Shown here one piece after another: positions 1,255 through 41,634 of a stretch of 49,610 nt of DNA; positions within the stretch are counted from its first letter, which is position 1; each line of letters opens with the position of its first letter. The position numbers and the translations under genes are program-made. This stretch comes from Escherichia coli. Lineage in GTDB: Bacteria > Pseudomonadota > Gammaproteobacteria > Enterobacterales > Enterobacteriaceae. The notes under the pieces are model-generated. The model had not been told where the DNA came from. It searched no databases and worked only from the letters and a program-made list of their open reading frames with translations. The stretch lies in the NCBI RefSeq assembly GCF_003334305.1, contig NZ_QOWS01000028.1; one strand, written 5' to 3'.

Positions 1255-3114
1255 ATGAGCAAAGGAACGACCAGCCAGGATGCCCCGTTCGGGACATTAT
1301 TGGGCTACGCCCCAGGTGGGGTAGCAATCTACTCTTCAGATTACAGTTCTCTCGATCCGCAGGAATACGAAGATGACGCCGTATTCCGTAGCTATATCGA
1401 CGACGAATATATGGGCCACAAGTGGCAATGCGTTGAATTTGCTCGCCGTTTTCTCTTTCTGAATTACGGTGTGGTCTTTACTGACGTGGGTATGGCGTGG
1501 GAGATTTTCTCGCTGCGCTTCCTGCGAGAAGTGGTTAATGACAACATCCTGCCATTGCAGGCATTTCCTAACGGCTCGCCGCGTGCGCCGGTCGCGGGTG
1601 CGCTTCTTATCTGGGATAAAGGCGGTGAATTTAAAGACACTGGCCATGTCGCCATCATTACCCAATTGCATGGCAACAAAGTCCGTATTGCGGAACAGAA
1701 CGTGATTCATTCCCCGTTGCCGCAAGGGCAACAGTGGACGCGTGAGCTGGAGATGGTGGTCGAAAACGGCTGCTATACCCTGAAAGACACTTTTGATGAC
1801 ACCACCATTCTGGGCTGGATGATCCAGACGGAAGATACTGAATACAGCTTACCGCAGCCGGAAATTGCAGGCGAGCTGCTGAAAATCAGCGGAGCGCGCC
1901 TGGAAAACAAAGGCCAGTTTGACGGTAAATGGCTGGATGAAAAAGATCCGCTGCAAAACGCCTATGTGCAGGCCAACGGTCAGGTGATCAATCAGGATCC
2001 TTATCATTACTACACCATTACCGAGAGTGCCGAGCAGGAGCTAATTAAAGCCACCAACGAGCTGCACCTGATGTATCTTCACGCAACCGACAAGGTGCTG
2101 AAAGATGACAACCTGCTGGCGCTGTTCGACATCCCGAAAATCCTCTGGCCACGTTTGCGTCTCTCCTGGCAGCGTCGCCGTCACCATATGATCACCGGTC
2201 GTATGGATTTCTGCATGGATGAGCGTGGTCTGAAGGTTTACGAGTACAACGCCGACTCTGCCTCATGTCATACCGAAGCGGGCTTGATCCTCGAACGTTG
2301 GGCGGAGCAGGGCTATAAAGGCAACGGCTTCAATCCGGCGGAAGGGCTGATTAACGAACTGGCTGGTGCCTGGAAACACAGTCGTGCACGTCCGTTTGTC
2401 CATATCATGCAGGACAAAGATATCGAGGAAAACTATCACGCGCAGTTTATGGAGCAGGCGCTGCACCAGGCGGGCTTTGAAACGCGTATCTTGCGCGGGC
2501 TGGATGAACTGGGCTGGGATGCTGCCGGGCAACTGATTGATGGGGAAGGACGGCTGGTTAACTGCGTGTGGAAAACCTGGGCGTGGGAAACCGCGTTTGA
2601 TCAGATTCGTGAAGTTAGCGACCGTGAGTTTGCTGCGGTGCCAATCCGTACCGGTCATCCGCAAAACGAAGTGCGTCTTATCGACGTATTGCTGCGCCCG
2701 GAAGTGCTGGTCTTTGAGCCGCTGTGGACGGTGATCCCCGGCAACAAAGCGATTCTGCCGATCCTCTGGTCGCTGTTCCCGCACCATCGTTACCTGCTGG
2801 ATACCGATTTCACTGTTAATGATGAACTGGTGAAAACAGGTTACGCAGTGAAACCGATCGCCGGTCGCTGTGGCAGCAATATCGACCTCGTCAGCCATCA
2901 TGAAGAGGTGCTGGACAAAACCAGCGGTAAATTTGCCGAGCAGAAAAACATCTATCAGCAACTGTGGTGTTTGCCGAAAGTGGACGGTAAATACATTCAG
3001 GTATGTACCTTCACCGTTGGCGGCAACTACGGTGGGACGTGTTTGCGCGGTGATGAATCACTGGTCATCAAAAAAGAGAGTGATATTGAACCGTTAATTG
3101 TGGTGAAAAAGTAA
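1255..3114 (+). CDS. gss: Bifunctional glutathionylspermidine synthetase/amidase (619 aa)
   Basis: ORF 1252..3114; translation MSKGTTSQDAPFGTLLGYAPGG... matches remembered Gss. ATG at 1255 preferred over the in-frame GTG at 1252; purine-rich RBS aaaggtaaag upstream. Confidence 0.96.
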   Translation: MSKGTTSQDAPFGTLLGYAPGGVAIYSSDYSSLDPQEYEDDAVFRSYIDDEYMGHKWQCVEFARRFLFLNYGVVFTDVGMAWEIFSLRFLREVVNDNILPLQAFPNGSPRAPVAGALLIWDKGGEFKDTGHVAIITQLHGNKVRIAEQNVIHSPLPQGQQWTRELEMVVENGCYTLKDTFDDTTILGWMIQTEDTEYSLPQPEIAGELLKISGARLENKGQFDGKWLDEKDPLQNAYVQANGQVINQDPYHYYTITESAEQELIKATNELHLMYLHATDKVLKDDNLLALFDIPKILWPRLRLSWQRRRHHMITGRMDFCMDERGLKVYEYNADSASCHTEAGLILERWAEQGYKGNGFNPAEGLINELAGAWKHSRARPFVHIMQDKDIEENYHAQFMEQALHQAGFETRILRGLDELGWDAAGQLIDGEGRLVNCVWKTWAWETAFDQIREVSDREFAAVPIRTGHPQNEVRLIDVLLRPEVLVFEPLWTVIPGNKAILPILWSLFPHHRYLLDTDFTVNDELVKTGYAVKPIAGRCGSNIDLVSHHEEVLDKTSGKFAEQKNIYQQLWCLPKVDGKYIQVCTFTVGGNYGGTCLRGDESLVIKKESDIEPLIVVKK

Positions 3115-3129
3115 TACATGTTGTAGCAA

Positions 3130-3164
3130 CCCCGTACTGATTATGAAGAATAATCAGTACGGGG
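3130..3164 (+). terminator. Candidate terminator hairpin after gss
   Basis: 14-bp perfect stem ccccgtactgatta / taatcagtacgggg with 7-nt loop, followed by AT-rich sequence but no clean T-run. Confidence 0.5.
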
Positions 3165-3405
3165 ATTAATCAAAATATTCAATATTTATATATTCCAATA
3201 TTTATTCATTTCATATGTGAATATATTAACCAGTGGAATACCTGTGTTTTGATTATTTCTAAAGATTTTGAATGAATGCTTATTGTCTGATACACAAGAA
3301 ATAACACTCTTTTTATCGTTAAAAGATGATATTTCACTTTGCCCACGCCGTGAAAGTCACTGATAATGCGTCCGTTCGTAAATTCAAAATGGCGTAATCT
3401 AATAT

Positions 3406-4905
3406 ATGCTAAATTTATTTGTTGGCCTTGATATATATACGGGGCTTTTGTTATTACTTGCTCTGGCATTTGTGTTGTTCTACGAAGCAATCAATGGTTT
3501 TCACGACACGGCGAACGCGGTGGCAACCGTTATTTATACTCGTGCCATGCAGCCGCATCTTGCGGTAGTAATGGCGGCGTTTTTTAACTTTTTTGGCGTG
3601 TTATTGGGCGGACTTAGCGTTGCCTATGCCATTGTCCATATGTTACCAACCGATTTGTTGCTGAATATGGGGTCAACCCACGGTCTGGCGATGGTCTTTT
3701 CCATGCTGCTGGCGGCGATTATATGGAACCTGGGGACGTGGTTCTTCGGTTTACCGGCCTCCAGTTCGCACACCTTGATTGGTGCGATTATCGGCATCGG
3801 TTTAACCAACGCGCTGTTAACCGGCTCATCGGTGATGGATGCGTTAAACCTGCGTGAAGTGACCAAAATTTTCTCCTCGCTGATTGTTTCCCCTATCGTC
3901 GGCCTGGTCATTGCGGGAGGCCTGATATTCCTGCTGCGACGCTACTGGAGCGGGACGAAAAAGCGTGACCGTATTCACCGCATTCCGGAAGATCGCAAAA
4001 AGAAAAAAGGCAAACGTAAACCGCCATTCTGGACGCGTATTGCGCTGATTGTTTCCGCTGCGGGCGTGGCGTTTTCGCACGGCGCGAACGACGGGCAGAA
4101 AGGGATCGGCCTGGTGATGCTGGTACTGGTGGGGATTGCCCCTGCTGGCTTCGTCGTCAATATGAACGCGTCCGGCTATGAAATTACCCGTACTCGCGAT
4201 GCCGTCTCCAACTTCGAACACTATCTGCAACAGCATCCTGAACTGCCGCAGAAGTTGATTGCGATGGAACCTCCATTGCCTGCGGCATCGACTGATGGCG
4301 CGCAAGTAACAGAGTTTCACTGTCATCCGGCAAATACCTTTGATGCGATTGCGCGCGTTAAAACGATGCTGCCAGGCAATATGGAAAGTTACGAGCCGTT
4401 AAGCGTGAGTCAGCGCAGCCAGCTGCGCCGCATTATGCTGTGCATCTCTGATACCTCCGCGAAGCTGGCGAAACTGCCAGGCGTCAGTAAAGAAGACCAG
4501 AACCTGCTGAAAAAACTGCGCAGCGATATGTTAAGCACCATTGAGTACGCTCCGGTGTGGATCATCATGGCGGTAGCACTGGCGCTCGGCATTGGCACCA
4601 TGATTGGCTGGCGTCGTGTAGCGATGACCATCGGTGAGAAGATTGGTAAGCGCGGCATGACGTATGCGCAAGGCATGGCGGCACAAATGACGGCGGCAGT
4701 GTCTATCGGTCTTGCCAGTTATATTGGGATGCCCGTCTCCACAACACACGTCCTCTCGTCTGCAGTTGCAGGGACGATGGTGGTGGACGGCGGTGGGTTA
4801 CAGCGTAAAACGGTAACCAGCATCCTGATGGCATGGGTATTTACTTTACCGGCGGCGATTTTTCTTTCTGGTGGGCTGTACTGGATAGCATTGCAGTTGA
4901 TTTAA
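3406..4905 (+). CDS. pitB: Low-affinity inorganic phosphate transporter PitB (499 aa)
   Basis: Full-length ORF; [39 protein letters not shown]... matches the Pit family / remembered PitB; multiple hydrophobic segments. Confidence 0.96.
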
Positions 4906-4914
4906 CCTTCCTGA

Positions 4915-4951
4915 AAATGCCCGGTCCTGGCGATCGGGCATTTCCATTTTT
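4915..4951. terminator. Bidirectional rho-independent terminator between convergent pitB and yghT
   Basis: Stem aaatgcccg / cgggcattt (4915-4943) with 11-nt loop, followed by ccatttttg; the A-run on the 5' side serves the opposite strand. Confidence 0.6.
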
Positions 4952-4953
4952 GA

Positions 4954-5646
4954 CTAGTGATAACCACGCGCGGTCATAAAATCCGTAATCGCTTTTTCTG
5001 CATCAACCAACACCTGTTCCAGTGGCTGATTGGCATCGATATCAACCAGTTGTGCACCACCAAAGGTTAACTGTGGCGTTATGGCAATCTTCCTCGCCAG
5101 CGATTCCCGTTTATGGTCGGGTTTACGTGCACAGGCAACTTCAAGGTCAACATTGAGTTTGATGACCAGATCAGGCTTATGGCTCGCCATCCAGTGAAAC
5201 GCTTTACGTTCCTGGCTTGCCAGCCATGAGACAAAACGACCACCTTCAACGTTAGGTGGGAACACCGTACCATCGTAAGCGCCAGGAATTTGGTCCTGAG
5301 GATAACGGTCGGTTAGAACAATTAACCCGCGACGACGACAGGCAAGCATATGACGAAAGCGCAGTAAGCGACGGGCGACAAACGCTGTAATTACCAGCGC
5401 CGGAACTGGTCCTGGCAATTTTTTTGCTGTTTTCACCTGATTTCGTTCAATTGTTTTATGTAAGGATTTTCCCATCAACGGTAATTTTGTCACTGCACGA
5501 CCGACATTTCCGGCTTGTTTTCCTAAATGAACTCTTTCGGCAGCACCATATTTTTCGACAACGGTAATGAGATGTTCACACACCGTTGACTTGCCTGAAC
5601 CATCGCTACCAATAACGGCAATTAATGGAGGTGTTATTGACTGCAT
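4954..5646 (-). CDS. yghT: P-loop ATP-binding protein YghT (230 aa), thymidylate-kinase-like
   Basis: Walker [10 protein letters not shown] near N-terminus and a DRYP motif ([12 protein letters not shown]) reminiscent of the TMK DRY motif; length matches remembered YghT. Confidence 0.88.
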
Positions 5647-5819
5647 GAATATATCCTTAAATTTAAATATCCATCCAAAATATTTATTTGGTTAATATGT
5701 TTTTATGAAAGCGTAATTCAGGTCAATGTCACAATTAACCATTGTCACAATAAGGTTGAACGGATATTCTGAGCACGGACCACGTAATATTCAATACATT
5801 ATTTACTGCCGGGTTTTTC
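5647..5819. promoter_or_regulatory. AT-rich divergent intergenic region (yghT <-> yghS)
   Basis: 173-bp AT-rich spacer between divergently oriented genes; no specific -10/-35 assigned. Confidence 0.4.
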
Positions 5820-6533
5820 GTGAATCAACGTGATATGTCAATAATTAATTCCACGCCAGTGCGTGTTATTGCCATTGTAGGATGTGATGGTTCAGGTAAA
5901 TCGACCCTCACGGCTAGCCTGGTAAATGAACTGGCAGCAAGAATGCCAGCAGAACACATTTATCTCGGGCAATCGTCCGGGCGAATTGGCGAATGGATTT
6001 CACAGCTCCCTGTTATTGGCGCACCTTTTGGGCGTTATTTGCGAAGTAAAGCGGCACATGTGCACGAAAAGCCCTCAACACCGCCTGGCAATATTACTGC
6101 TCTGGTTATCTATCTGCTTTCCTGCTGGCGGGCGTACAAGTTTCGCAAAATGTTGTGTAAAAGCCAGCAAGGCTTTCTGCTCATCACCGACCGCTACCCG
6201 CAGGTTGAAGTGCCGGGTTTTCGCTTTGATGGCCCGCAATTGGCAAAAACCACGGGCGGTAACGGTTGGATAAAAATGTTAAGGCAGCGCGAGCTGAAGC
6301 TGTACCAATGGATGGCATCTTATTTGCCCGTATTGTTGATTCGTCTTGGCATTGATGAACAAACCGCGTTTGCGCGTAAACCTGACCACCAACTGGCAGC
6401 GTTACAGGAAAAAATCGCCGTTACGCCGCAACTGACATTCAATGGCGCAAAGATCCTTGAACTGGATGGGCGACACCCCGCCGATGAAATTCTGCAAGCG
6501 TCACTACGCGCAATTCACGCCGCGCTTTCCTGA
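5820..6533 (+). CDS. yghS: P-loop ATP-binding protein YghS (237 aa), paralog of YghT/YghR
   Basis: Walker A GCDGSGKST plus DRYP motif (LLITDRYPQVE). GTG start at 5820; alternative ATG at 5835. Confidence 0.86.
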   Translation: MNQRDMSIINSTPVRVIAIVGCDGSGKSTLTASLVNELAARMPAEHIYLGQSSGRIGEWISQLPVIGAPFGRYLRSKAAHVHEKPSTPPGNITALVIYLLSCWRAYKFRKMLCKSQQGFLLITDRYPQVEVPGFRFDGPQLAKTTGGNGWIKMLRQRELKLYQWMASYLPVLLIRLGIDEQTAFARKPDHQLAALQEKIAVTPQLTFNGAKILELDGRHPADEILQASLRAIHAALS

Positions 6534-6564
6534 TCACCAAAATGGATAGGGGATGATTTAACGA

Positions 6565-7323
6565 ATGGATGCACTACAAACTCAAACTGTTAATAGTACA
6601 ACCGCGCCGCAGCCCAACTACATTCCGGGGCTGATTGCGGTGGTCGGGTGTGATGGCACCGGTAAATCCACACTGACCACCGACCTGGTGAAATCGCTGC
6701 AACAACACTGGCAAACCGAGCGGCGCTATCTGGGGCTGCTCTCCGGCGAAGACGGCGACAAAATCAAACGATTGCCGTTGGTTGGCGTCTGGCTGGAACG
6801 GCGACTGGCGGCCAAATCCTCGAAAACCCAAAGCATGAAAACCAAATCTCCGGCGCTATGGGCGGCGGTGATTATGTACTGCTTCTCGCTGCGAAGAATG
6901 GCGAATCTACGCAAGGTTCAGCGACTGGCGCAAAGTGGCGTTCTGGTGGTCAGCGATCGCTTCCCGCAGGCTGAAATTTCGGGCTTTTATTATGATGGAC
7001 CGGGGATTGGCGTCGAACGTGCGACCGGGAAAATCAGCATGTTTCTGGCGCAGCGCGAACGGCGTTTATACCAACAAATGGCGCAATATCGCCCGGAATT
7101 AATTATTCGCCTGGGCATTGATATTGAGACTGCCATCTCCCGCAAGCCTGACCATGACTATGCCGAGCTGCAGGACAAAATCGGCGTCATGTCGACGATT
7201 GGCTATAACGGCACAAAAATTCTTGAGATTGATTCCAGAGCGCCCTACAGCGAAGTGCTGGAACAGGCACAGAAGGCGGTTTCTCTGGTTGCCATCGTTT
7301 CTGACCGCCGAAGTTTAACTTAA
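6565..7323 (+). CDS. yghR: P-loop ATP-binding protein YghR (252 aa), paralog of YghS/YghT
   Basis: Walker A GCDGTGKST plus DRFP motif (VVSDRFPQAE); same architecture as the two preceding genes. Confidence 0.88.
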   Translation: MDALQTQTVNSTTAPQPNYIPGLIAVVGCDGTGKSTLTTDLVKSLQQHWQTERRYLGLLSGEDGDKIKRLPLVGVWLERRLAAKSSKTQSMKTKSPALWAAVIMYCFSLRRMANLRKVQRLAQSGVLVVSDRFPQAEISGFYYDGPGIGVERATGKISMFLAQRERRLYQQMAQYRPELIIRLGIDIETAISRKPDHDYAELQDKIGVMSTIGYNGTKILEIDSRAPYSEVLEQAQKAVSLVAIVSDRRSLT

Positions 7324-7368
7324 GGCTGGCGGGATACTTTTTACTATCAACGATAAGGTCAGGCTGAA

Positions 7369-8718
7369 TTGGCGGGTTTTAACATCAAACATTGGTTTGC
7401 AGATGGCGCGTTTCGCACCATTATTCGCAATAGCGCCTGGTTAGGCTCCAGTAATGTCGTGAGCGCCTTGCTGGGTCTGTTGGCGCTCTCGTGTGCCGGT
7501 AAAGGGATGACGCCCGCCATGTTTGGCGTACTGGTGATTGTGCAATCGTACGCCAAGTCGATCAGCGATTTTATTAAGTTTCAGACATGGCAACTGGTGG
7601 TTCAGTACGGAACGCCAGCCTTGACCAACAATAATCCGCAGCAATTTCGCAATGTCGTCTCATTTTCCTTCTCGCTGGATATCGTCAGCGGCGCGGTGGC
7701 GATTGTCGGCGGCATTGCCTTACTGCCATTCCTTTCCCATTCATTAGGTCTGGATGACCAAAGCTTTTGGCTGGCGGCGCTGTATTGCACGCTCATTCCT
7801 TCAATGGCTTCCTCCACGCCGACCGGCATTCTGCGTGCGGTAGATCGCTTCGATTTAATTGCTGTACAGCAGGCGACGAAACCTTTTCTGCGCGCAGCGG
7901 GGAGCGTCGTAGCCTGGTATTTTGACTTTGGTTTTGCGGGTTTTGTTATTGCCTGGTACGTGTCGAATCTGGTTGGCGGCACCATGTACTGGTGGTTTGC
8001 AGCGCGCGAATTACGCCGCAGAAATATCCATAATGCCTTCAAATTGAATCTGTTTGAGTCTGCCCGACACATCAAAGGCGCGTGGAGTTTTGTCTGGTCA
8101 ACCAACATTGCCCACTCCATCTGGTCGGCGCGTAACTCGTGCAGCACAGTGCTGGTGGGGATCGTGTTAGGACCCGCTGCCGCCGGGTTATTTAAAATCG
8201 CCATGACATTCTTCGACGCCGCCGGAACGCCAGCGGGTTTGCTGGGTAAAAATTTTTACCCAGAGGTGATGCGTTTAGATCCGCGCACCACCAGACCGTG
8301 GTTGTTAGGTGTGAAGTCCGGTTTACTGGCGGGCGGAATCGGTATTCTGGTGGCGCTCGCGGTGTTTATCGTCGGCAAGCCGCTCATTTCGCTGGTGTTT
8401 GGCGTTAAGTATCTCGAAGCGTATGACCTGATTCAGGTGATGCTGGGCGCAATTGTGATTTCGATGCTGGGCTTCCCTCAGGAGTCATTGCTATTGATGG
8501 CGGGAAAACAGCGCGCTTTTCTCGTGGCGCAAACCATCGCCTCAATCGGCTACATCGTATTGCTGTTCATGTTCTGTCATCTGTTTGGTGTGCTGGGAGC
8601 AGCGTTTGCTTACTTCGGTGGGCAATGTCTGGACGTGGCGCTCTCGTTAATTCCAACCTTAAAGGCATTTTTTCAGCGCCATTCCTTGCTTTATAACGCA
8701 GCCGGAGAGAAATCCTGA
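7369..8718 (+). CDS. yghQ: Polytopic membrane protein, flippase-like (polysaccharide/lipid exporter family), YghQ
   Basis: 449-aa ORF with many hydrophobic helices; remembered as yghQ. TTG at 7369, so the true start is uncertain. Its stop (8716-8718) overlaps the next ATG (8718-8720). Confidence 0.78.
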   Translation: MAGFNIKHWFADGAFRTIIRNSAWLGSSNVVSALLGLLALSCAGKGMTPAMFGVLVIVQSYAKSISDFIKFQTWQLVVQYGTPALTNNNPQQFRNVVSFSFSLDIVSGAVAIVGGIALLPFLSHSLGLDDQSFWLAALYCTLIPSMASSTPTGILRAVDRFDLIAVQQATKPFLRAAGSVVAWYFDFGFAGFVIAWYVSNLVGGTMYWWFAARELRRRNIHNAFKLNLFESARHIKGAWSFVWSTNIAHSIWSARNSCSTVLVGIVLGPAAAGLFKIAMTFFDAAGTPAGLLGKNFYPEVMRLDPRTTRPWLLGVKSGLLAGGIGILVALAVFIVGKPLISLVFGVKYLEAYDLIQVMLGAIVISMLGFPQESLLLMAGKQRAFLVAQTIASIGYIVLLFMFCHLFGVLGAAFAYFGGQCLDVALSLIPTLKAFFQRHSLLYNAAGEKS

Positions 8719-9542
8719 TGATGAGAAAATATTTCCCGCTTGAGGCGAGCGAGCGTCTATTTGTTGCGATTGAAGAAGATGATGTCGTTGATGCACAGGT
8801 TAGTTTGCCGCCGACTATTGCACTAAGTTGTACCACCGAAATCATTCATGATAATTACGCGTTATGCCTGCAATTCTGGCTCAATGGCGTTGATCGTCAG
8901 GAATTACTGCGTTTAGTTCGCAAACAAGCCAAAGGCGATGAGCTGACTGCTGATGAGCGCAAACAATTTAAATACATGCGAGCGCGCTACAAGCACCTGC
9001 GTTTTGCGCAACGGCTGTATTTAAAGAAGCATCAGGCCGGATTTTTATTCGGCAAAACGACCGTTTTTCTGGGGCGTTTTCAGGACGGCTTTCGTAACGG
9101 TAAGAAAAATATTGTGTCGTATTACGGCAACCTGTTACGGATTTATTTAAGCTCTCCGGTCTGGTCGTTGGTGAACTATTCATTACGCCATAGCCAGTTA
9201 GAAAGCGTAAGCAGTTTTATTGCCTATCGGCAAAAGCAAATGCATACCCTGAAAGAGATTATTGCCAAACCGCGACTAACCGGCAGGGAATTTCATGATG
9301 TGCGAAAAATCATCAGCCAACAGGTTTCTTATTACGACACCTTAAGATCGCTTGATCCTGAAAATAAAGAGGCGTTACAGATTTCCCGTTTCCTCGCCGC
9401 CATTAATGGCCTGATGGGAGATAAACACGACGACATGGTGGCGGATGATATGGAAAACCGCCAGTCGTATGATGCACCGGTGGCGCTGGATAGCGATATT
9501 CGCCAGCGCTTAGAGCTGCTGATTTCGCGTTTTCCGCTATAA
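8718..9542 (+). CDS. Hypothetical soluble protein (274 aa)
   Basis: Intact ORF, translationally coupled to yghQ (ATGA overlap); no motif I can name; basic, Lys/Arg-rich. Confidence 0.6.
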   Translation: MMRKYFPLEASERLFVAIEEDDVVDAQVSLPPTIALSCTTEIIHDNYALCLQFWLNGVDRQELLRLVRKQAKGDELTADERKQFKYMRARYKHLRFAQRLYLKKHQAGFLFGKTTVFLGRFQDGFRNGKKNIVSYYGNLLRIYLSSPVWSLVNYSLRHSQLESVSSFIAYRQKQMHTLKEIIAKPRLTGREFHDVRKIISQQVSYYDTLRSLDPENKEALQISRFLAAINGLMGDKHDDMVADDMENRQSYDAPVALDSDIRQRLELLISRFPL

Positions 9543-9550
9543 CCGGAGCA

Positions 9551-10114
9551 ATGATGTCATCTCGTTTGATTATTGCGCTGATTATCATGCTTTTAGCCCC
9601 GGGTGTGCAGGCACACAATTTCGTCACTGGCAAAACGGTTACCCCTGTTTATATCCAGGAAGGCGGCGAGCTGCTTCTGAATAGCGACGACGAAATTCAC
9701 TACCAAAAGTGGAACAGCACACAATTAGCGGGAAAAGTCCGCATTATTCAGTATATCGCCGGGCGTAAGTCGGCGAAGAAAAAGAACTCACTGTTAATTA
9801 AAGCGGTTGAAGCGGCAAACTTTCCGCAGGATCGTTTTCAGCCCACCACCATTGTGAACACCGATGATGCCATCTTTGGTACTGGCTATTTTGTTGTTGG
9901 CAAAATCGAAAAAAATAAACGCCGCTATCCGTGGGCGCAATTCATTATTGACGGCAATGGACAGGGACGCGTTGCCTGGCGCTTGCCGGAGCAGAGTTCA
10001 ACCATTCTGGTGCTGAATAAAGCCGGGCAAATTCAGTGGGCAAAGGACGGCAGCCTGACGCCGGAAGAGGTAGATCATGTCATTGCGCTGGCGCAGAAAC
10101 TGATCAATGAATAA
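9551..10114 (+). CDS. Secreted/periplasmic hypothetical protein (187 aa) with N-terminal signal peptide
   Basis: MMSSRLIIALIIMLLAPGVQA|HNF looks like a Sec signal peptide with an AxA-like cleavage site; ggag RBS 8 nt upstream. Confidence 0.65.
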   Translation: MMSSRLIIALIIMLLAPGVQAHNFVTGKTVTPVYIQEGGELLLNSDDEIHYQKWNSTQLAGKVRIIQYIAGRKSAKKKNSLLIKAVEAANFPQDRFQPTTIVNTDDAIFGTGYFVVGKIEKNKRRYPWAQFIIDGNGQGRVAWRLPEQSSTILVLNKAGQIQWAKDGSLTPEEVDHVIALAQKLINE

Positions 10115-10144
10115 AAAATTCAAAGGATTGAGGGCGTTAGTGAG

Positions 10145-30800: not shown

Positions 30801-32421
30801 CCTGAACTGCTACGCCAATGATGCCTATGCAGGCGGCACCAAGTGTTCTGCAGATCTGAAAAAATCGCTGGTCGATAACAACATGATCTACGGTGACGGT
30901 AGCAGCAAAGCGGGCATGATGAACCCGAGCTACCCGCTCAACTATATGGAAAAACCGCTGACACGCCTGATGCTGGGCCGTTCCTGGTGGGATCTGAACA
31001 TCAAAGTTGATGTCGAGAAGTATCCGGGAGCAGTATCGGAAGAGGGACAGAACGTTACTGAAACCATCAGCCTGTACTCGAATCCGACCAAATGGTTTGC
31101 AGGTAACATGCAGTCAACTGGCCTGTGGGCACCGGCTCAGAAAGAGGTCACCATTAAGTCCAATGCGAACGTTCCTGTGACCGTCACCGTGGCGCTGGCT
31201 GACGACCTGACCGGAAGAGAGAAGCATGAAGTTGCGCTGAACCGTCCGCCAAGAGTGACTAAAACGTACTCTCTGGACGCTAGCGGTACGGTGAAGTTCA
31301 AGGTGCCTTACGGTGGCCTGATTTATATCAAGGGCAATAGCTCTACCAATGAATCTGCCAGCTTCACCTTTACTGGTGTGGTAAAAGCACCGTTCTATAA
31401 AGACGGCGCATGGAAAAACGATCTGAACTCACCGGCTCCGCTGGGTGAGCTGGAATCAGACGCTTTCGTTTATACCGCACCGAAGAAGAACCTGAATGCC
31501 AGCAATTACACTGGCGGACTGAAGCAATTCGCTAACGATCTGGACACCTTTGCCAGCTCGATGAATGACTTCTACGGTCGTGATGAAACGAGCGGTAAGC
31601 ACCGGATGTTTACCTATAAAGCATTGACGGGACATAAACATCGTTTCACAAACGATGTGCAGATCTCCATCGGTGATGCGCACTCGGGTTATCCGGTAAT
31701 GAACAGCAGCTTCTCGACGAACAGCACCACGCTGCCGACGATGCCGCTGAACGACTGGTTGATCTGGCACGAAGTAGGGCACAACGCCGCAGAAACGCCG
31801 CTGACTGTACCGGGTGCAACTGAAGTCGCTAACAACGTGCTGGCGCTGTACATGCAGGATCGTTATCTCGGCAAGATGAACCGTGTCGCTGACGATATTA
31901 CCGTTGCGCCGGAATATCTGGAGGAGAGCAACGGTCAGGCATGGGCACGCGGCGGTGCGGGTGACCGTCTGCTGATGTACGCGCAGCTGAAGGAATGGGC
32001 AGAGAAAAACTTTGATATCAAGAAATGGTATCCAGAAGGTGAATTGCCTAAGTTCTTCAGCGATCGTGAAGGGATGAAAGGCTGGAACCTGTTCCAGTTG
32101 ATGCACCGTAAAGCGCGCGGCGATGACGTTGGTGACAAGACCTTTGGTGGCAAGAATTACTGTGCTGAATCCAACGGTAACGCTGCTGACACGCTGATGC
32201 TGTGTGCATCCTGGGTCGCTCAGACGGATCTTTCGGAGTTCTTTAAGAAATGGAATCCGGGCGCGAATGCTTACCAGTTGCCGGGAGCGACGGAGATGAG
32301 CTTCGAAGGCGGTGTGAGCCAGTCGGCGTACAACACGCTGGCGTCACTCAATCTGCCGAAACCGAAGCAAGGGCCGGAAACCATTAACAAGGTTACCGAG
32401 TATTCGATGCCTGCTGAATAA
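27856..32421 (+). CDS. sslE: SslE/YghJ secreted lipoprotein, M60-like zinc metalloprotease (mucinase), about 1521 aa
   Basis: Lipobox LLAGC|DGGG, Pro-rich PEPTP linker, zincin motif HEVGH at nt 31768-31782; translation aligns with remembered YghJ. ATG at 27856 preferred over the TTG at 27838. Confidence 0.95.
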   Translation: MNKKFKYKKSLLAAILSATLLAGCDGGGSGSSSDTPPVDSGTGSLPEVKPDPTPNPEPTPEPTPDPEPTPEPTPDPEPTPEPEPEPVPTKTGYLTLGGSLRVTGDITCNDESSDGFTFTPGDKVTCVAGYNTTIATFDTQSEAARSLRAVEKVSFSLEDAQELAGSDNKKSNALSLVTSMNSCPANTEQVCLEFSSVIESKRFDSLYKQIDLAPEEFKKLVNEEVENNAATDKAPSTHTSPVVPATTPGTKPDLNASFVSANAEQFYQYQPTEIILSEGRLVDSQGDGVVGVNYYTNSGRGVTGENGEFSFSWGETISFGIDTFELGSVRGNKSTIALTELGDEVRGANIDQLIHRYSKAGQNHTRVVPDEVRKVFAEYPNVINEIINLSLSNGATLGEGEQVVNLPNEFIEQFKTGQAKEIDTAICAKTDGCNEARWFSLTTRNVNDGQIQGVINKLWGVDTNYKSVSKFHVFHDSTNFYGSTGNARGQAVVNISNAAFPILMARNDKNYWLAFGEKRAWDKNELAYITEAPSLVEPENVTRDTATFNLPFISLGQVGEGKLMVIGNPHYNSILRCPNGYSWNGGVNKDGQCTLNSDPDDMKNFMENVLRYLSDDKWTPDAKASMTVGTNLDTVYFKRHGQVTGNSAAFDFHPDFADISVEHLSSYGDLDPQEMPLLILNGFEYVTQVGNDPYAIPLRADTSKPKLTQQDVTDLIAYLNKGGSVLIMENVMSNLKEESASGFVRLLDAAGLSMALNKSVVNNDPQGYPNRVRQQRATGIWVYERYPAVDGALPYTIDSKTGEVKWKYQVENKPDDKPKLEVASWLEDVDGKQETRYAFIDEADHKTEDSLKAAKEKIFAAFPGLKECTNPAYHYEVNCLEYRPGTGVPVTGGMYVPQYTQLSLNADTAKAMVQAADLGTNIQRLYQHELYFRTNGRKGERLSSVDLERLYQNMSVWLWNDTSYRYEEGKNDELGFKTFTEFLNCYANDAYAGGTKCSADLKKSLVDNNMIYGDGSSKAGMMNPSYPLNYMEKPLTRLMLGRSWWDLNIKVDVEKYPGAVSEEGQNVTETISLYSNPTKWFAGNMQSTGLWAPAQKEVTIKSNANVPVTVTVALADDLTGREKHEVALNRPPRVTKTYSLDASGTVKFKVPYGGLIYIKGNSSTNESASFTFTGVVKAPFYKDGAWKNDLNSPAPLGELESDAFVYTAPKKNLNASNYTGGLKQFANDLDTFASSMNDFYGRDETSGKHRMFTYKALTGHKHRFTNDVQISIGDAHSGYPVMNSSFSTNSTTLPTMPLNDWLIWHEVGHNAAETPLTVPGATEVANNVLALYMQDRYLGKMNRVADDITVAPEYLEESNGQAWARGGAGDRLLMYAQLKEWAEKNFDIKKWYPEGELPKFFSDREGMKGWNLFQLMHRKARGDDVGDKTFGGKNYCAESNGNAADTLMLCASWVAQTDLSEFFKKWNPGANAYQLPGATEMSFEGGVSQSAYNTLASLNLPKPKQGPETINKVTEYSMPAE

Positions 32422-32422
32422 C

Positions 32423-32535
32423 CCGGATAAGGCGTTCACGCCGCATCCGGCATGAAATAAGGCGCACCGGGTTGCGCCAGCTTATCGGGCCTGGAGGAAA
32501 GCCATATGGCATACACCTGCAGGCCCGCATCCGGC
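32423..32535. repeat. REP/BIME palindromic units between sslE and pppA
   Basis: ccggataaggcgttcacgccgcatccgg and gcaggcccgcatccggca match the REP consensus; extragenic. Confidence 0.75.
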
Positions 32536-32560
32536 AAGTTACAACAAACAACCTTTAACC

Positions 32561-33370
32561 ATGCTTTTTGATGTTTTTCAGCAATACCCCGTGGCGATGC
32601 CCATACTGGCTACCGTCGGAGGATTGATCATCGGCAGTTTTTTGAATGTGGTGATTTGGCGTTACCCCATCATGCTGCGCCAACAAATTGCGGAGTTTCA
32701 TGGTGAAATGCCGAGTGCGCAGTCAAAAATAAGCCTTGCGCTACCGCGTTCGCACTGCCCACATTGTCAGCAGACTATCCGCGTTCGTGACAATATTCCG
32801 CTGCTCTCCTGGTTGATGCTCAAAGGGCGCTGCCGCGACTGTCAGGCGAAAATCAGCAAGCGTTATCCGCTGGTGGAGTTATTGACGGCACTCGCTTTTT
32901 TGCTGGCGAGTCTGGTCTGGCCGGAAAGTGGATGGGCGCTGGCGGTGATGATATTATCCGCCTGGCTGATTGCCGCGAGCATCATCGACCTCGATCACCA
33001 ATGGCTGCCCGATGTTTTTACTCAGGGCGTATTGTGGACGGGACTAATTGCGGCATGGGCGCAGCAGAGCCCGCTCACGCTACAAGATGCAGTCACCGGC
33101 GTCCTGGTGGGGTTTATCACTTTTTACTCTCTGCGCTGGATAGCCGGAATAGTTCTGCGTAAAGAAGCATTAGGCATGGGCGATGTATTATTGTTCGCTG
33201 CGTTAGGTAGTTGGGTGGGGCCGTTGTCGCTACCCAATGTTGCTTTAATCGCCTCATGCTGCGGCCTGATATATGCCGTTATTACAAAAAGAGGATCAAC
33301 CACACTGCCTTTTGGACCGTGTTTAAGTCTGGGCGGTATAGCAACAATTTATCTACAGGCATTGTTTTAA
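32561..33370 (+). CDS. pppA: Prepilin peptidase (GspO-type) PppA (269 aa)
   Basis: Polytopic; tetracysteine CPHC...CRDC zinc motif typical of type IV prepilin peptidases; matches remembered PppA. Confidence 0.93.
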
Positions 33371-33435
33371 TGATAACAACGTCATTATCAAAGTGACATT
33401 TTAACTCTTATTAATAACCTTAGAGATTATTTACC

Positions 33436-33846
33436 ATGTCGATAAAACAAATGCCAGGGAGGGTATTAATATCGCTATTGTTGAGCGTTACAGGATTATT
33501 AAGTGGCTGTGCCAGCCATAATGAAAATGCCAGTTTACTGGCGAAAAAACAGGCGCAAAATATCAGCCAAAACCTGCCGATTAAATCTGCGGGATATACC
33601 TTAGTGCTGGCACAAAGTAGCGGCACGACGGTAAAAATGACCATTATCAGCGAAGCGGGGACTCAGACCACGCAGACGCCTGACGCCTTTTTAACCAGCT
33701 ATCAACGACAAATGTGCGCTGACCCAACGGTGAAATTAATGATTACCGAGGGAATTAATTACAGCATAACGATTAATGATACACGTACAGGTAACCAGTA
33801 TCAGCGGAAACTGGATCGTACCACCTGTGGAATAGTCAAAGCATAA
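33436..33846 (+). CDS. yghG: YghG lipoprotein, T2SS-beta pilotin (GspS-beta), 136 aa
   Basis: Lipobox LLSGC|ASH; position between pppA and gspC as in the K-12 yghG locus. Confidence 0.8.
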   Translation: MSIKQMPGRVLISLLLSVTGLLSGCASHNENASLLAKKQAQNISQNLPIKSAGYTLVLAQSSGTTVKMTIISEAGTQTTQTPDAFLTSYQRQMCADPTVKLMITEGINYSITINDTRTGNQYQRKLDRTTCGIVKA

Positions 33847-33863
33847 CGTCGGGTAGATATAAA

Positions 33864-34823
33864 TTGGCGCGGGTTGTTTTTCGTGACGCACGAATTTATC
33901 TCATTCAATGGCTGACAAAAATTCGTCACACTCTTAACCAGAGACAATCTTTTAATACAGACAAAGAGCATCTGCGAAAAATTGTACGCGGGATGTTCTG
34001 GCTGATGCTGCTTATTATTTCTGCAAAAGTGGCGCATTCACTCTGGCGCTATTTCTCCTTTTCTGCGGAATATACGGCTGTTTCCCCATCGGCGAATAAA
34101 CCGCCCCGTGCGGATGCAAAAACGTTCGATAAAAATGACGTGCAATTAATCAGCCAGCAAAACTGGTTTGGCAAATATCAGCCCGTCGCCACGCCGGTAA
34201 AACAACCCGAACCTGTGCCTGTGGCAGAAACGCGTCTTAATGTGGTGCTGCGCGGGATTGCCTTTGGTGCCAGACCCGGCGCGGTTATTGAAGAAGGCGG
34301 TAAACAGCAGGTCTATTTGCAGGGTGAAACGCTTGGCTCGCACAATGCGGTGATTGAGGAAATCAATCGCGACCATGTGATGCTGCGCTATCAGGGAAAA
34401 ATAGAGCGCCTGAGCCTGGCTGAAGAGGAGCGTTCCACTGTTGCCGTGACCAACAAAAAAGCTGTCAGTGACGAAGCAAAGCAAGCTGTTGCTGAGCCTG
34501 CTGCCAGTGCGCCAGTTGAGATCCCGACTGCCGTGCGTCAGGCACTGGCGAAAGATCCGCAGAAAATTTTTAACTATATCCAGCTTACGCCTGTGCGTAA
34601 GGAGGGGATTGTCGGTTATGCAGTGAAGCCGGGGGCAGATCGTTCTCTGTTCGATGCCAGCGGTTTCAAGGAAGGCGATATCGCCATTGCGCTAAATCAG
34701 CAGGATTTCACTGATCCACGAGCAATGATTGCTCTGATGCGGCAGTTACCTTCAATGGATTCCATTCAACTTACGGTTTTACGCAAGGGTGCGCGCCACG
34801 ACATTTCCATCGCGCTGCGCTAA
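33864..34823 (+). CDS. gspC: T2SS inner-membrane protein GspC
   Basis: Single TM segment (MFWLMLLIISAKVAHSLW) followed by a periplasmic domain. 5' end uncertain: the ORF track begins at a TTG at 33864, and the first ATG (33993) seems too far in. Confidence 0.75.
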   Translation: MARVVFRDARIYLIQWLTKIRHTLNQRQSFNTDKEHLRKIVRGMFWLMLLIISAKVAHSLWRYFSFSAEYTAVSPSANKPPRADAKTFDKNDVQLISQQNWFGKYQPVATPVKQPEPVPVAETRLNVVLRGIAFGARPGAVIEEGGKQQVYLQGETLGSHNAVIEEINRDHVMLRYQGKIERLSLAEEERSTVAVTNKKAVSDEAKQAVAEPAASAPVEIPTAVRQALAKDPQKIFNYIQLTPVRKEGIVGYAVKPGADRSLFDASGFKEGDIAIALNQQDFTDPRAMIALMRQLPSMDSIQLTVLRKGARHDISIALR

Positions 34824-34852
34824 CCGCATTTAATCCAGGAGAATCATTCATC

Positions 34853-36913
34853 GTGTTTTGGCGTGATATTACGTTGTCGGTCTGGCGTAAGAAGACAACT
34901 GGCCTCAAAACAAAAAAGCGTTTACTGCCGCTGGTGCTGGCAGCGGCATTATGCAGTTCACCGGTCTGGGCGGAAGAAGCCACTTTCACCGCTAATTTTA
35001 AAGATACCGACCTGAAATCGTTCATCGAAACCGTCGGCGCTAACCTTAATAAAACCATCATTATGGGGCCGGGCGTACAGGGGAAAGTGAGTATTCGCAC
35101 CATGACCCCGCTCAATGAACGCCAGTATTACCAGCTATTCCTTAACCTGTTGGAAGCACAGGGGTATGCCGTCGTACCGATGGAAAACGACGTGCTGAAG
35201 GTGGTGAAATCCAGCGCTGCGAAAGTCGAGCCGCTGCCGCTGGTCGGTGAAGGCAGCGACAACTACGCGGGCGATGAAATGGTCACCAAAGTAGTGCCGG
35301 TACGTAATGTGTCGGTACGCGAGCTGGCACCGATTCTGCGCCAGATGATCGACAGCGCAGGCTCAGGCAACGTTGTTAATTACGATCCCTCCAACGTGAT
35401 TATGCTCACCGGACGCGCCTCCGTTGTGGAGCGCCTTACGGAAGTGATCCAGCGCGTGGATCACGCGGGTAATCGCACCGAAGAGGTGATCCCGCTGGAT
35501 AACGCCTCGGCTTCGGAAATCGCCCGCGTGCTGGAAAGCCTGACGAAAAACAGCGGCGAGAACCAGCCAGCGACGCTGAAATCTCAAATTGTCGCCGACG
35601 AACGCACCAACAGTGTGATTGTCAGTGGTGACCCGGCCACGCGGGACAAAATGCGCCGCCTGATCCGTCGGCTGGACTCAGAAATGGAACGCAGCGGCAA
35701 CAGCCAGGTTTTCTATCTCAAATACAGCAAAGCCGAAGATCTGGTCGATGTGCTGAAGCAGGTCAGCGGCACGCTCACGGCGGCTAAAGAAGAGGCGGAA
35801 GGCACGGTCGGTAGCGGGCGTGAGATTGTATCCATCGCCGCCAGCAAACACAGTAATGCCCTGATTGTAACCGCACCGCAGGACATCATGCAGTCGCTGC
35901 AAAGCGTGATTGAACAACTGGATATTCGCCGTGCTCAGGTGCACGTCGAGGCGTTGATCGTGGAAGTTGCCGAAGGTAGCAATATCAACTTCGGCGTGCA
36001 GTGGGCGTCGAAAGATGCCGGATTAATGCAGTTTGCTAATGGTACGCAGATCCCTATCGGTACGCTGGGGGCAGCCATTTCTCAGGCGAAACCGCAGAAA
36101 GGCTCGACGGTGATCAGTGAAAACGGCGCTACCACCATTAATCCGGATACCAACGGCGATCTCTCCACACTCGCCCAGCTTCTTTCTGGATTTAGCGGTA
36201 CGGCGGTTGGCGTGGTGAAAGGCGACTGGATGGCACTGGTGCAGGCGGTTAAAAACGACTCCAGCTCGAACGTTCTCTCCACGCCGAGCATCACTACGCT
36301 GGACAACCAGGAAGCCTTCTTCATGGTGGGCCAGGACGTTCCGGTATTAACCGGCTCTACCGTTGGCTCCAATAACAGCAATCCTTTCAATACAGTAGAA
36401 AGGAAAAAAGTCGGCATCATGCTGAAAGTCACGCCGCAGATTAACGAAGGTAACGCGGTACAGATGGTGATTGAGCAGGAAGTCTCGAAGGTGGAAGGAC
36501 AGACCAGCCTCGACGTGGTGTTTGGTGAGCGCAAACTGAAAACCACCGTGCTGGCTAACGATGGTGAGCTGATTGTGCTTGGTGGTCTGATGGACGATCA
36601 GGCGGGAGAAAGCGTGGCGAAAGTGCCGCTGCTGGGCGATATCCCATTGATTGGTAACCTGTTTAAATCGACGGCGGATAAAAAAGAAAAACGTAACCTG
36701 ATGGTGTTTATCCGTCCGACCATTCTGCGTGACGGTATGGCGGCAGACGGCGTGTCGCAGCGCAAATATAACTATATGCGCGCCGAACAGATCTATCGTG
36801 ATGAGCAAGGTTTAAGCCTGATGCCGCACACCGCGCAGCCGGTACTGCCAGCGCAAAATCAGGCTCTACCGCCGGAAGTTCGTGCGTTCCTTAATGCCGG
36901 GAGAACGCGTTAA
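34853..36913 (+). CDS. gspD: T2SS outer-membrane secretin GspD (686 aa)
   Basis: GTG start with aggag RBS; signal peptide; secretin C-domain motifs ([14 protein letters not shown]). Confidence 0.93.
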
Positions 36914-39629: not shown

Positions 39630-39645
39630 TTTACGGAGTTATCAC

Positions 39646-40101: not shown

Positions 40102-40104
40102 GCA

Positions 40105-41632: not shown

Positions 41633-41634
41633 TC

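Follow-up and report, generated by a model that had tools for sequence, protein, structure and literature searches.

YghT, YghS, and YghR of Escherichia coli, three paralogs with a thymidylate kinase fold, are candidate head-group kinases of a sphingolipid locus

In lipid A biosynthesis, the 4'-kinase LpxK is a P-loop enzyme that acts at the cytoplasmic face, where it phosphorylates a precursor of an outer membrane lipid ahead of the flipping and Lpt export steps, and the phosphates of lipid A are later edited by PAP2 enzymes (LpxE/LpxF) and LmtA. [quoted passage not shown] The Caulobacter sphingolipid locus also contains a MOP-type flippase, CC_1166 (PMC11324152), and Caulobacter LptF2/G2, which bind the housekeeping LptB, have been implicated in sphingolipid transport (bioRxiv 10.64898/2026.04.12.717747). 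Export of anionic sphingolipids by LptF2/G2 is established in this genus, and such outer membrane lipids influence its sensitivity to polymyxin, its resistance to detergent, and its virulence (PMC11324152). Here, we analyze yghT, yghS, and yghR, three genes that adjoin a sphingolipid-type locus in a stretch of E. coli DNA of 49,610 nucleotides (the window).

Gene content of the locus

The T-type gene yghT (positions 4954 to 5646, minus strand; 230 amino acids [aa]) was recognized by its open reading frame (ORF), motifs, and RefSeq name, and the S-type gene yghS (5820 to 6533, plus strand; 237 aa) by its ORF, BLASTP, motifs, and RefSeq annotation; the R-type gene yghR (6565 to 7323, plus strand) encodes 252 aa. 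The original prediction described three tandem genes flanking a lipid locus. The tandem order holds for yghS and yghR, which share a strand, but yghT is divergent from them across a 173-bp spacer, and all three genes are grouped at a single end of the lipid locus instead of on either side of it.

Downstream of yghR lies yghQ (7369 to 8718, plus strand), which encodes a MOP/Wzx-family flippase-like membrane protein (NCBIfam MOP flippase family, E value of 2.6e-8) labeled “lipopolysaccharide biosynthesis protein” in RefSeq. Its stop codon overlaps the start (TGATG) of a gene annotated as hypothetical (8718 to 9542, plus strand), whose 274-aa product fits the CHAD domain (PF05235), with a two-lobed helical fold and conserved basic and histidine residues. 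There follow a YtfJ-family gene (9551 to 10114, plus strand; TIGR01626, 212 bits, above its cutoff), the product of which has an N terminus that by eye resembles a signal peptide, the lptF paralog lptF2 (10145 to 11215, plus strand; TIGR04407, 319 bits), and the lptG paralog lptG2 (11212 to 12291, plus strand), an ORF with a mapped RefSeq annotation. The seven genes from yghS to lptG2 are co-oriented in the window, with gaps of at most 45 bp.

The ceramide genes proper, all as annotated in RefSeq, comprise spt for serine palmitoyltransferase (12326 to 13498), acpR for a specialized acyl carrier protein (13498 to 13746), a cerR-like gene for an NAD-dependent epimerase/dehydratase-family reductase (13778 to 14692), and aasR for a fatty acyl-AMP ligase or acyl-AcpR synthetase (14689 to 16410), all on the minus strand, together with yghO (16781 to 17923, plus strand) for a candidate N-acyltransferase of the bacterial ceramide synthase type. 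The spt ortholog of E. coli BL21 forms 3-oxo-sphinganine, as do E. coli Spt, AcpR, and AasR together; the BL21 counterpart of the cerR-like gene (ECD_02852) is a proposed keto-sphinganine reductase, and yghO/ECD_02850 is listed as “aca” (acpR, aasR, and these assignments, PMC9386255).

CpgB resembles the E. coli trio in belonging to a proteobacterial sphingolipid locus and in catalyzing the step that the trio might perform. However, the domain of CpgB is of the DAG-kinase/LCB5 type and carries a GGDG ATP motif (PMC10331486), whereas the three E. coli proteins have a P-loop and a thymidylate kinase (TMK) fold and lack GGDG; they are therefore not homologs of CpgB. Nor are they homologs of other genes of the Caulobacter locus, none of which is TMK-like (CC_1167 is CDP-glycerol glycerophosphotransferase-like, and CC_1166 is the flippase). 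Conversely, the annotation of the E. coli-type locus holds no recognizable counterparts of the other cpg head-group genes, and annotation and profile searches revealed no recognizable nucleotidyltransferase, CDP-alcohol transferase, or glycosyltransferase in it.

Across 5,426 complete E. coli genomes, yghT, yghS, and yghR are present in 4,605 (about 85%) and the whole adjacent sphingolipid-type locus in 4,056 (75%), so that about 550 genomes retain the kinase genes but not a complete lipid locus; BL21 and UTI89 are among the strains in which the locus is intact. A literature search on the function of the three genes or the E. coli sphingolipid head group returned screen listings and regulon tables only, and no paper describing the lipid of the E. 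coli locus or its head group was found. Knockouts of yghQ, yghR, yghS, and yghT in a K-12 background, which lacks the lipid genes, gave no phenotype in one silkworm screen (PMC9278758).

Fold and acceptor site of YghT, YghS, and YghR

With all six frames of the 49.6-kb window translated, G.DG.GK[ST]T matches at only three sites, one per kinase gene. The Walker A motifs are GSDGSGKST at residue 13 of YghT, GCDGSGKST at residue 21 of YghS, and GCDGTGKST at residue 28 of YghR, followed by DRYP at 113, DRYP at 124, and DRFP at 131, respectively. The resulting spacings of 100, 103, and 103 residues bear out the predicted pairing of G[CS]DG[ST]GKST with DR(Y/F)P at similar distances, and a third motif, RKPDH, is common to all three proteins (at 174, 186, and 193). 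Pairwise BLASTP alignments showed 37% identity for YghT/YghS (E value of 6e-54), 34% for YghT/YghR (1e-47), and 44% for YghS/YghR (1.5e-62), and the three-way alignment contains 55 invariant columns. The three proteins are thus paralogs whose similarity is far beyond chance, in agreement with the triplication proposed from the motifs (34 to 44% identity, E values of 1e-47 to 1e-62).

All three lack a membrane segment (maximum Kyte-Doolittle 19-residue mean, 1.35) and, with catalytic residues kept in all types, look like soluble, cytoplasmic, catalytically competent proteins. An ABC transporter ATPase, already disfavored by the original prediction, was rejected: neither LSGG nor [LIVMFY]SGG[QE] occurs in any of them, Pfam ABC_tran covers the P-loop only (residues 8 to 41, approximately; E values of 0.013 to 0.053), and the fold matches are kinases. 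It had been left to structure prediction to choose between a TMK/dNK-like fold and other P-loop kinases, and TMK proved the closest, being the best fold match as well as the best profile match; all three proteins have the three-dimensional TMK/NMP-kinase fold. The TMK-like, polyphosphate-using P-loop kinase PPK2 (polyphosphate kinase 2) was rejected, with no Pfam PPK2 match and a structural score clearly below that of TMK. The TMK hallmarks (an acidic P-loop of the form GxxGxGK[ST]T, a DR[YH] motif, and a LID arginine) have counterparts in all three proteins, namely, G[CS]DG[ST]GKST, DR[YF]P, and RKPDH, which align with D15/K19, D96-R97-Y98, and LID R143 of human TMPK.

Beyond this shared core, the proteins depart from TMK. 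They are 16 to 19% identical to TMK (PF02223, TIGR00041), and Pfam and NCBIfam yielded sub-threshold TMK and generic P-loop matches only: TIGR00041 scored 25.8 bits for YghT, 24.5 for YghS, and 32.0 for YghR against a curated cutoff of 83.25, PRK07933 scored at most 26 against a cutoff of 193, and Pfam Thymidylate_kin gave no match with an E value below 0.01 (best i-Evalue, 0.011). Similarly, a PDB sequence search with a profile of the three paralogs gave only marginal TMK matches (E value of 0.003), which cover no more than the P-loop and DRY regions. Two insertions, of roughly 10 and 17 residues and with a family-specific LP[LV]xG, remodel the acceptor lobe, and the family, maintained as three fixed paralogs within a lipid/transport operon, has its own DR[YF]PQ and RKPDH motifs; the acceptor-side DR[YF]PQ and the LID Arg are invariant in it. 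Of the human TMPK residues F42, R45, and F72, which contact TMP in the published structures, the first two correspond to L56 and L59 (hhalign) and the position of F72 varies across the family, while R76 aligns with a conserved arginine, R111. Because of the low TIGR00041 scores, the lack of a Pfam match with an E value below 0.01, and the nonconservation of F42, R45, and F72, these proteins are, as judged from their sequences, very unlikely to be true dTMP kinases, the TMP site being absent.

Relatives and gene neighborhoods

To place the trio in a wider context, we inspected 10 kb on each side of the match in 80 related loci, which are the best-scoring of 321 relatives and are therefore biased toward close relatives of YghR. 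All three types were found in 60 of 78 loci from alpha-, beta-, and gammaproteobacteria and Myxococcales (R, S, and T in 56; R, S, and two T in 4 more), and the order S then R is kept in nearly all 78. Orthologs could be assigned cleanly, with median bit-score margins of 37 to 64 outside Enterobacterales, and T-type orthologs from other proteobacterial classes are 50 to 58% identical to YghT. By these sequence comparisons, the triplication is ancient.

The association of the kinase genes with the SPT-like operon, suggested earlier as a check across Enterobacterales, was seen as physical linkage in long enterobacterial loci, where spt (29/29), cerR (29/29), and aasR (28/29) lie within 10 kb. 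Among 23 long nonenterobacterial loci, spt occurs within this distance in 9, including those of Rhodanobacter, Luteibacter, Sulfuritalea, Methylotenera, and Rhodocyclaceae, so that physical linkage of the trio to spt and other ceramide genes is conserved across taxa. Many of the other 14 belong to Sphingomonadales or Acetobacter, which produce sphingolipids although the genes for them are scattered. Of 43 nonenteric loci, 41 have one or more lipid or envelope partners.

Within the best 80 of the 321 relatives, the YghQ-type flippase was the most frequent neighbor (60 loci), and yghO was found in 26, an OlsC/LpxO-like acyl hydroxylase in 18, and the YtfJ-family gene in enterobacterial loci only. 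In analogy to the LpxK system, enzyme types that edit lipid A phosphates adjoin the trio outside Enterobacterales: an LmtA-like methyltransferase (TIGR04571, lipid A 1-phosphate O-methyltransferase; E value of 1e-31) in 16 of the 80 loci, its ORF abutting the T-type kinase gene with overlapping or adjoining ends, and LpxE-like, LpxF-like, and undecaprenyl-diphosphatase-like PAP2 phosphatases in 20 and 9 of them. A DAGK-type kinase with GGDG lies beside the trio in 4 of the same 80 loci; if this kinase is a CpgB-like ceramide kinase, calling the trio “the” ceramide kinase would be too simple. Only 2 of the 80 contain a CDP-alcohol phosphatidyltransferase motif, and just one of these two ORFs resembles a membrane protein.

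Among more distant relatives of the kinases, fusions occur to MOP flippases (P0216 and P0261), to a GT4 glycosyltransferase (P0251), or to an uncharacterized N-terminal domain. Another relative, P0168, has a Polysacc_synt flippase on one side and GT4/Wzy_C genes on the other, within a Wzx/Wzy polysaccharide cluster that includes a sulfotransferase. These fusions and the Wzx/Wzy setting argue that the ancestral partner was a flippase or a glycan pathway rather than sphingolipid as such. In many 500-aa relatives, the N-terminal domain spans about 260 aa and has an invariant G..D.D that recalls nucleotidyltransferases; given that it has no Pfam match and no PDB sequence match (best E value of 1.2), we treat this assignment as tentative. 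Kinship of the domain with the CHAD-like protein was ruled out (hhalign probability, 0.1%). Likewise, a 249-aa P-loop protein beside one fused homolog (in locus L082) reached 17 bits in hmmsearch, which makes it a very distant relative at most, and hence provides no evidence for a general multiparalog rule.

Candidate substrates and regulatory region

Since the three genes travel with sphingolipid synthesis and export genes, their products probably phosphorylate a lipid head group, with a sphingolipid head group rather than nucleotides as the probable acceptor. We give a probability of roughly one-half (0.5) to the reading that YghT, YghS, and YghR together phosphorylate the head group of an anionic sphingolipid, as parts of an ancient module of kinases, YghQ, and the CHAD protein that is attached to a proteobacterial locus for ceramide synthesis and Lpt-like export. 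Spt, AcpR, AasR, CerR, and YghO would deliver ceramide at the inner leaflet, and the kinases would use ATP to place a phosphate either on the ceramide hydroxyl or on a phosphate that is there already, in the manner of TMK acting on dTMP. The paralogs could each carry out a distinct, nonredundant step, or the three could form a hetero-oligomer. YghQ would then flip the anionic phospho-sphingolipid, LptF2/LptG2 would extract it in the direction of the outer membrane, and in other taxa PAP2 phosphatases and the LmtA-like phosphate methyltransferase might trim or cap it in the periplasm. The parts of this scheme that we infer are the lipid as acceptor, how many phosphorylations take place and in which order, and what YghQ and the CHAD protein do. 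The MOP flippase family otherwise handles pyrophosphate-linked lipids, and it is tempting to speculate, although we consider this improbable, that the kinases work in series (ceramide to Cer-P, Cer-PP, and Cer-PPP), at least two steps being TMK-style transfers onto phosphate, with the CHAD protein binding the oligophosphate and passing the lipid to YghQ and with PAP2 and LmtA-like enzymes trimming or capping it periplasmically elsewhere.

Alternatively, the trio might phosphorylate a soluble head-group precursor (a sugar, polyol, or glycerate-like acid) that, once activated, is passed to ceramide or another lipid; in this case, the kinases would never act on the lipid. Small soluble acceptors are the classical ligands of the TMK/dNK fold, the three proteins are soluble, and a kinase with a nucleotidyltransferase, as the G..D.D domain of many relatives might provide, is a standard activation pair, with a precedent in the phosphoglycerate activated by CpgD (PMC12275187). 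Yet this domain matched nothing in the Pfam and PDB sequence searches, the E. coli-type locus has no recognizable nucleotidyltransferase, CDP-alcohol transferase, or glycosyltransferase for the hand-on, the CDP-alcohol phosphatidyltransferase motif is limited to 2 of the best 80 loci, and the LmtA-, LpxE-, and LpxF-like neighbors are all lipid-phosphate enzymes, which makes a soluble precursor possible but unlikely. We are more doubtful that the trio and YghQ serve a polyprenyl-phosphate-linked glycan or another envelope glycolipid, with the ceramide genes nearby merely because they share an envelope island. The frequency of the flippase (60 of the best 80 loci), its RefSeq label, the MOP and GT4 fusions, the polysaccharide setting of P0168, and the retention of the kinases by K-12-like strains after loss of the lipid genes would all fit such a role, but the locus in the window lacks a glycosyltransferase, an initiating transferase, and a polymerase, and synteny with spt, cerR, and aasR across three proteobacterial classes is hard to ascribe to chance. 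Moreover, the presence of CC_1166 in the Caulobacter sphingolipid locus (PMC11324152) makes a MOP flippase itself a feature of such loci.

The lack of a dedicated ATPase for LptF2/G2 in the locus, with the kinase genes co-oriented with and closely spaced to the transporter genes, could suggest that the trio are noncatalytic or regulatory NTPases, i.e., nucleotide switches or energizing subunits for YghQ or LptF2/G2. This is very unlikely, as they have neither an ABC signature nor an ABC fold, Caulobacter LptF2/G2 bind the housekeeping LptB, and an invariant DR[YF]PQ and LID Arg are typical of phosphotransfer to a second substrate, not of simple hydrolysis. Finally, the TMK-like fold, profile, and P-loop, DR[YF], and LID motifs, together with the RefSeq annotation of yghS and yghT as dTMP kinase, would suit genuine nucleotide kinases (for dTMP, another NMP, or a deoxynucleoside) that supply nucleotides locally. 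E. coli, however, already has an essential tmk elsewhere. With TIGR00041 scores of 24.5 to 32 bits against 83.25, nonconserved F42/R45/F72 positions, two insertions in the acceptor lobe, existing yghR, yghS, and yghT knockout strains (PMC9278758), and three paralogs conserved across classes in a lipid/transport operon, which would be unexpected for nucleotide salvage, we regard this role as extremely improbable.

If the three proteins are head-group kinases, they would constitute a second route to anionic bacterial sphingolipids, evolutionarily independent of Caulobacter CpgB/CpgA/CpgC/CpgD, give a testable function to three long-standing unknown E. coli “y-genes,” and correct a widespread “dTMP kinase” annotation. 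Given the effects of anionic sphingolipids in Caulobacter on polymyxin sensitivity, detergent resistance, and virulence (PMC11324152), this could be relevant to commensal and pathogenic Enterobacterales. Were the serial oligophosphate scheme true, the product would represent a class of outer membrane sphingolipid that is highly anionic and new to the literature, serving as an LPS-like surface lipid in most E. coli.

The AT-rich region between the divergent yghT and yghS (5647 to 5819, 173 bp) presumably is regulatory; the GC content is 0.40 in the bin from 5501 to 6000, versus about 0.52 around it. A scan for promoters and terminators gave no more matches than expected from shuffled sequence, the one σ70-like match (5742 to 5770) not being above chance. 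In a published regulon, yghS is listed among the genes of SlyA (PMC5797941), as one whose expression rises when SlyA is overproduced, which suggests that expression of the locus is poor in the laboratory. The only candidate that resembles a genuine terminator is a hairpin between the convergent pitB and yghT (4915 to 4943).

Fold and family membership of the YghT, YghS and YghR trio

The ORFs of yghT (-), yghS (+) and yghR (+) were recovered within 4954-7323 of the window, where the original prediction had placed them as thymidylate-kinase-like paralogs. As it described, all three proteins share the Walker A motif G[CS]DG[ST]GKST (at residue 13 in YghT, 21 in YghS and 28 in YghR), followed at similar spacing by DR[YF]P (100, 103 and 103 residues further on, respectively); a third common motif, RKPDH, lies about 60 residues beyond DR[YF]P. 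Pairwise BLASTP comparisons (34 to 44% identity over ~218 residues, E values of 1e-47 to 1.5e-62) bear out the proposed paralogy; aligned together, the three proteins share the same residue at 55 columns. An LSGGQ-type signature is indeed absent from all three proteins, and reading them as ATPases is unlikely. None of the three sequences contains a hydrophobic stretch of membrane-spanning length.

The trio matches at best generic P-loop families in Pfam and scores 24.5 to 32 bits against the NCBIfam dTMP kinase model TIGR00041, compared with a curated cutoff of 83.25 bits. Given this shortfall, RefSeq/PGAP probably over-annotates yghS and yghT in naming them “dTMP kinase”; yghR is called “hypothetical” or “nucleoside/nucleotide kinase family protein.” When the family profile was compared with that of human TMPK (a sequence identical to PDB 2xx3), the two matched with a probability of 96% over 189 columns, and the P-loop Asp and Lys, the D-R-[YF] triad and the LID Arg were aligned. 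Orthologs of YghT, YghS and YghR (T, S and R types) show little or no variation at these residues, so that all three paralogs look catalytically competent. F42 and R45 of human TMPK align to Leu in the family and the F72 position is variable, all three being TMP-contacting positions of the human enzyme; two insertions, moreover, remodel the acceptor lobe relative to the human enzyme. Judged from these alignments, the trio would work like TMK-type phosphotransferases yet, since the TMP-contacting positions are unconserved and the acceptor lobe is remodeled, would fall outside the dTMP kinases, a function that we consider unlikely. While a TMK-fold P-loop kinase is an already known kind of enzyme, this family and its fixed three-paralog architecture are undescribed in the literature searched.

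Distribution of the paralogs and layout of the locus

Searching 1.84 billion representative proteins with a profile returned 2,158 relatives at an E value of ≤0.001. When a single genome of each GTDB species was scanned, the best 80 of 321 relatives gave 80 loci, in 78 of which every kinase ORF was typed by best hit. The three ortholog types are distinct, being 45 to 63% identical to the E. coli proteins in the sampled loci, with median bit-score margins of 37 to 64 outside Enterobacterales. The full trio was present in 60 of these 78 loci, 56 with one of each type and 4 with R, S and two T genes. S followed by R in tandem is almost universal, with T usually divergent and upstream. Sampled taxa included Enterobacterales, Xanthomonadales (Rhodanobacter, Luteibacter), Sphingomonadales, Acetobacter, Myxococcales and Betaproteobacteria (Sulfuritalea, Gallionellaceae, Methylotenera, Nitrotoga, Rhodocyclaceae). 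Retention of the three paralogs as a set over this range suggests that each has a role of its own: they might catalyze successive steps, use different acceptors or form a hetero-oligomer.

The window is a segment of the E. coli chromosome, and its queried 2.6 kb is 100% identical to strains such as FORC_041, whose RefSeq gene order is yghU, gss, pitB, yghT (-), yghS, yghR, yghQ, a hypothetical protein, a YtfJ-family protein, LptF and LptG paralogs, then on the - strand spt, an acyl carrier protein, an NAD-dependent epimerase-family gene and a fatty acyl-AMP ligase, and finally yghO and the glc operon. The kinase genes were predicted to be in tandem and to flank the lipid locus; they sit at one end of it, and only yghS and yghR are in tandem, yghT diverging from them across a 173-bp spacer (5647-5819). 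In the window, yghS, yghR, yghQ, the gene for a 274-amino-acid CHAD-fold protein (8718-9542), the ytfJ-like gene, lptF2 and lptG2 all run in one direction, separated by ≤45 bp, and the yghQ stop overlaps the start of the CHAD gene (TGATG). The spacer is strongly AT-rich (GC of 0.40 in the surrounding 500-bp bin). As yghS figures in a list of genes that SlyA overexpression up-regulates (PMC5797941), the locus may be kept silent in laboratory culture. In the gap that separates pitB from the convergent yghT, a GC-rich hairpin with a 12-bp stem and T tracts (4915-4943) looks like a bidirectional intrinsic terminator.

Among 5,426 complete E. coli genomes, the kinase region is present in 4,605, and ≥80% of the neighboring 11-kb lipid locus (7300-18500) in 4,056; ~550 keep the kinases without an intact lipid locus. 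In one listed genome, that of strain HT-946, an IS5 element separates a partial yghQ from yghO, pointing to an insertion sequence-associated deletion.

Genomic partners and candidate function

In E. coli BL21, Spt, AcpR and AasR jointly form 3-oxo-sphinganine, with yghO and the epimerase-family gene proposed as partners in ceramide formation (PMC9386255). Caulobacter builds its head group with the ceramide kinase CpgB, which has a DAG-kinase fold with a GGDG motif (PMC10331486), along with CpgA, CpgC and CpgD (PMC11324152, PMC12275187); none of its sphingolipid genes is TMK-like. LptF2/G2 of the Caulobacter locus are implicated in sphingolipid export via the housekeeping LptB (bioRxiv 10.64898/2026.04.12.717747). 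The E. coli-type locus, in contrast, is without recognizable cpg-type genes in RefSeq annotation. Our literature search turned up no functional work on YghR, YghS or YghT; mentions of their genes were restricted to a knock-out screen (no phenotype) and the SlyA regulon (PMC5797941). Nor did it find a description of the association of the kinases with a MOP flippase and CHAD protein, or of the linkage to sphingolipid genes.

Clustering of all ORFs in the 80 loci (best 80 of 321 relatives) identified the YghQ-type MOP flippase in 60, the CHAD protein in 50, Spt in 47, the CerR-like reductase in 45, AasR in 41, LptF2 and LptG2 in 33 and 32, and the YghO-like acyltransferase in 26. The original prediction proposed to check co-occurrence with the spt operon across Enterobacterales; in terms of physical linkage, among loci of at least 18 kb in this sample, spt lies within 10 kb of the kinases in 29/29 enterobacterial and 9/23 other loci. 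At least one lipid or envelope partner occurs in 41 of 43 non-enteric loci. Outside Enterobacterales, the kinase genes are interleaved with four further families, all of lipid-acting types and three of them of types that act on lipid phosphates: a membrane methyltransferase (16 loci; best NCBIfam match LmtA, the Leptospira lipid A 1-phosphate O-methyltransferase, E value of 1e-31), two PAP2 phosphatase families (20 and 9 loci; best matches LpxE-like and undecaprenyl-diphosphatase/LpxF-like) and an OlsC/LpxO-like acyl 2-hydroxylase (18 loci). In many cases the LmtA-like gene adjoins the T-type kinase gene or overlaps it (e.g., loci L045, L049 [2905-3648], L053, L056 [7067-7807] and L062), with one or two PAP2 phosphatases alongside.

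In the best-supported reading, to which we give a probability of about 0.5, the trio serves as a module for head-group phosphorylation in the E. coli-type sphingolipid pathway, analogous but not homologous to the CpgB route. The trio would make a phosphorylated, anionic sphingolipid, which YghQ would flip and LptF2/G2 would then export. For three widespread E. coli genes of unknown function, this would provide a hypothesis on an uncharacterized outer-membrane lipid that can be tested directly. That phosphates are added to ceramide stepwise, as an oligophosphate head group that the CHAD protein would read, is a long shot.

Two alternatives draw on the same data. The kinases could act on soluble head-group precursors, which we regard as unlikely but the stronger of the two, or, less probably still, the trio could be linked to flippases or glycans rather than specifically to sphingolipids. 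Several features qualify the head-group reading and leave both alternatives some weight. The proteins are soluble; some distant relatives carry an additional N-terminal domain, others are fusions with a MOP flippase (P0216, P0261) or a GT4 glycosyltransferase (P0251), and another belongs to a Wzx/Wzy polysaccharide cluster; some E. coli genomes keep the kinases without an intact lipid locus; and in four loci a GGDG[TS] protein of ~350 amino acids is right beside the trio (L014, 8059-9120; L042, 2670-3809; L043, 5378-6421; L081, 15113-16144). This motif is typical of DAG-kinase/LCB5-type lipid kinases such as CpgB, so both kinase types can coexist. The neighboring lipid-phosphate enzymes count against the first alternative, and the linkage to spt against the second.

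Many distant family members (P0162, P0168, P0170, P0173, P0183) are ~500 amino acids long, with an extra N-terminal domain of ~260 residues that holds invariant K, G..D.D and D..G motifs and had no match in Pfam and PDB sequence searches. Within the window, the CerR-like ORF, when called mechanically from a GTG start (13778-14902, -, 374 amino acids), overlaps the upstream ligase gene by ~210 bp; RefSeq places this epimerase-family gene at 13778-14692 (304 amino acids), and translation probably does not cover the long N-terminal extension. Beyond the downstream end of the glc operon, a 1,527-amino-acid ORF followed by a run of co-oriented ORFs (27838-44325) may correspond, by size and order, to yghJ/sslE and a type II secretion operon.
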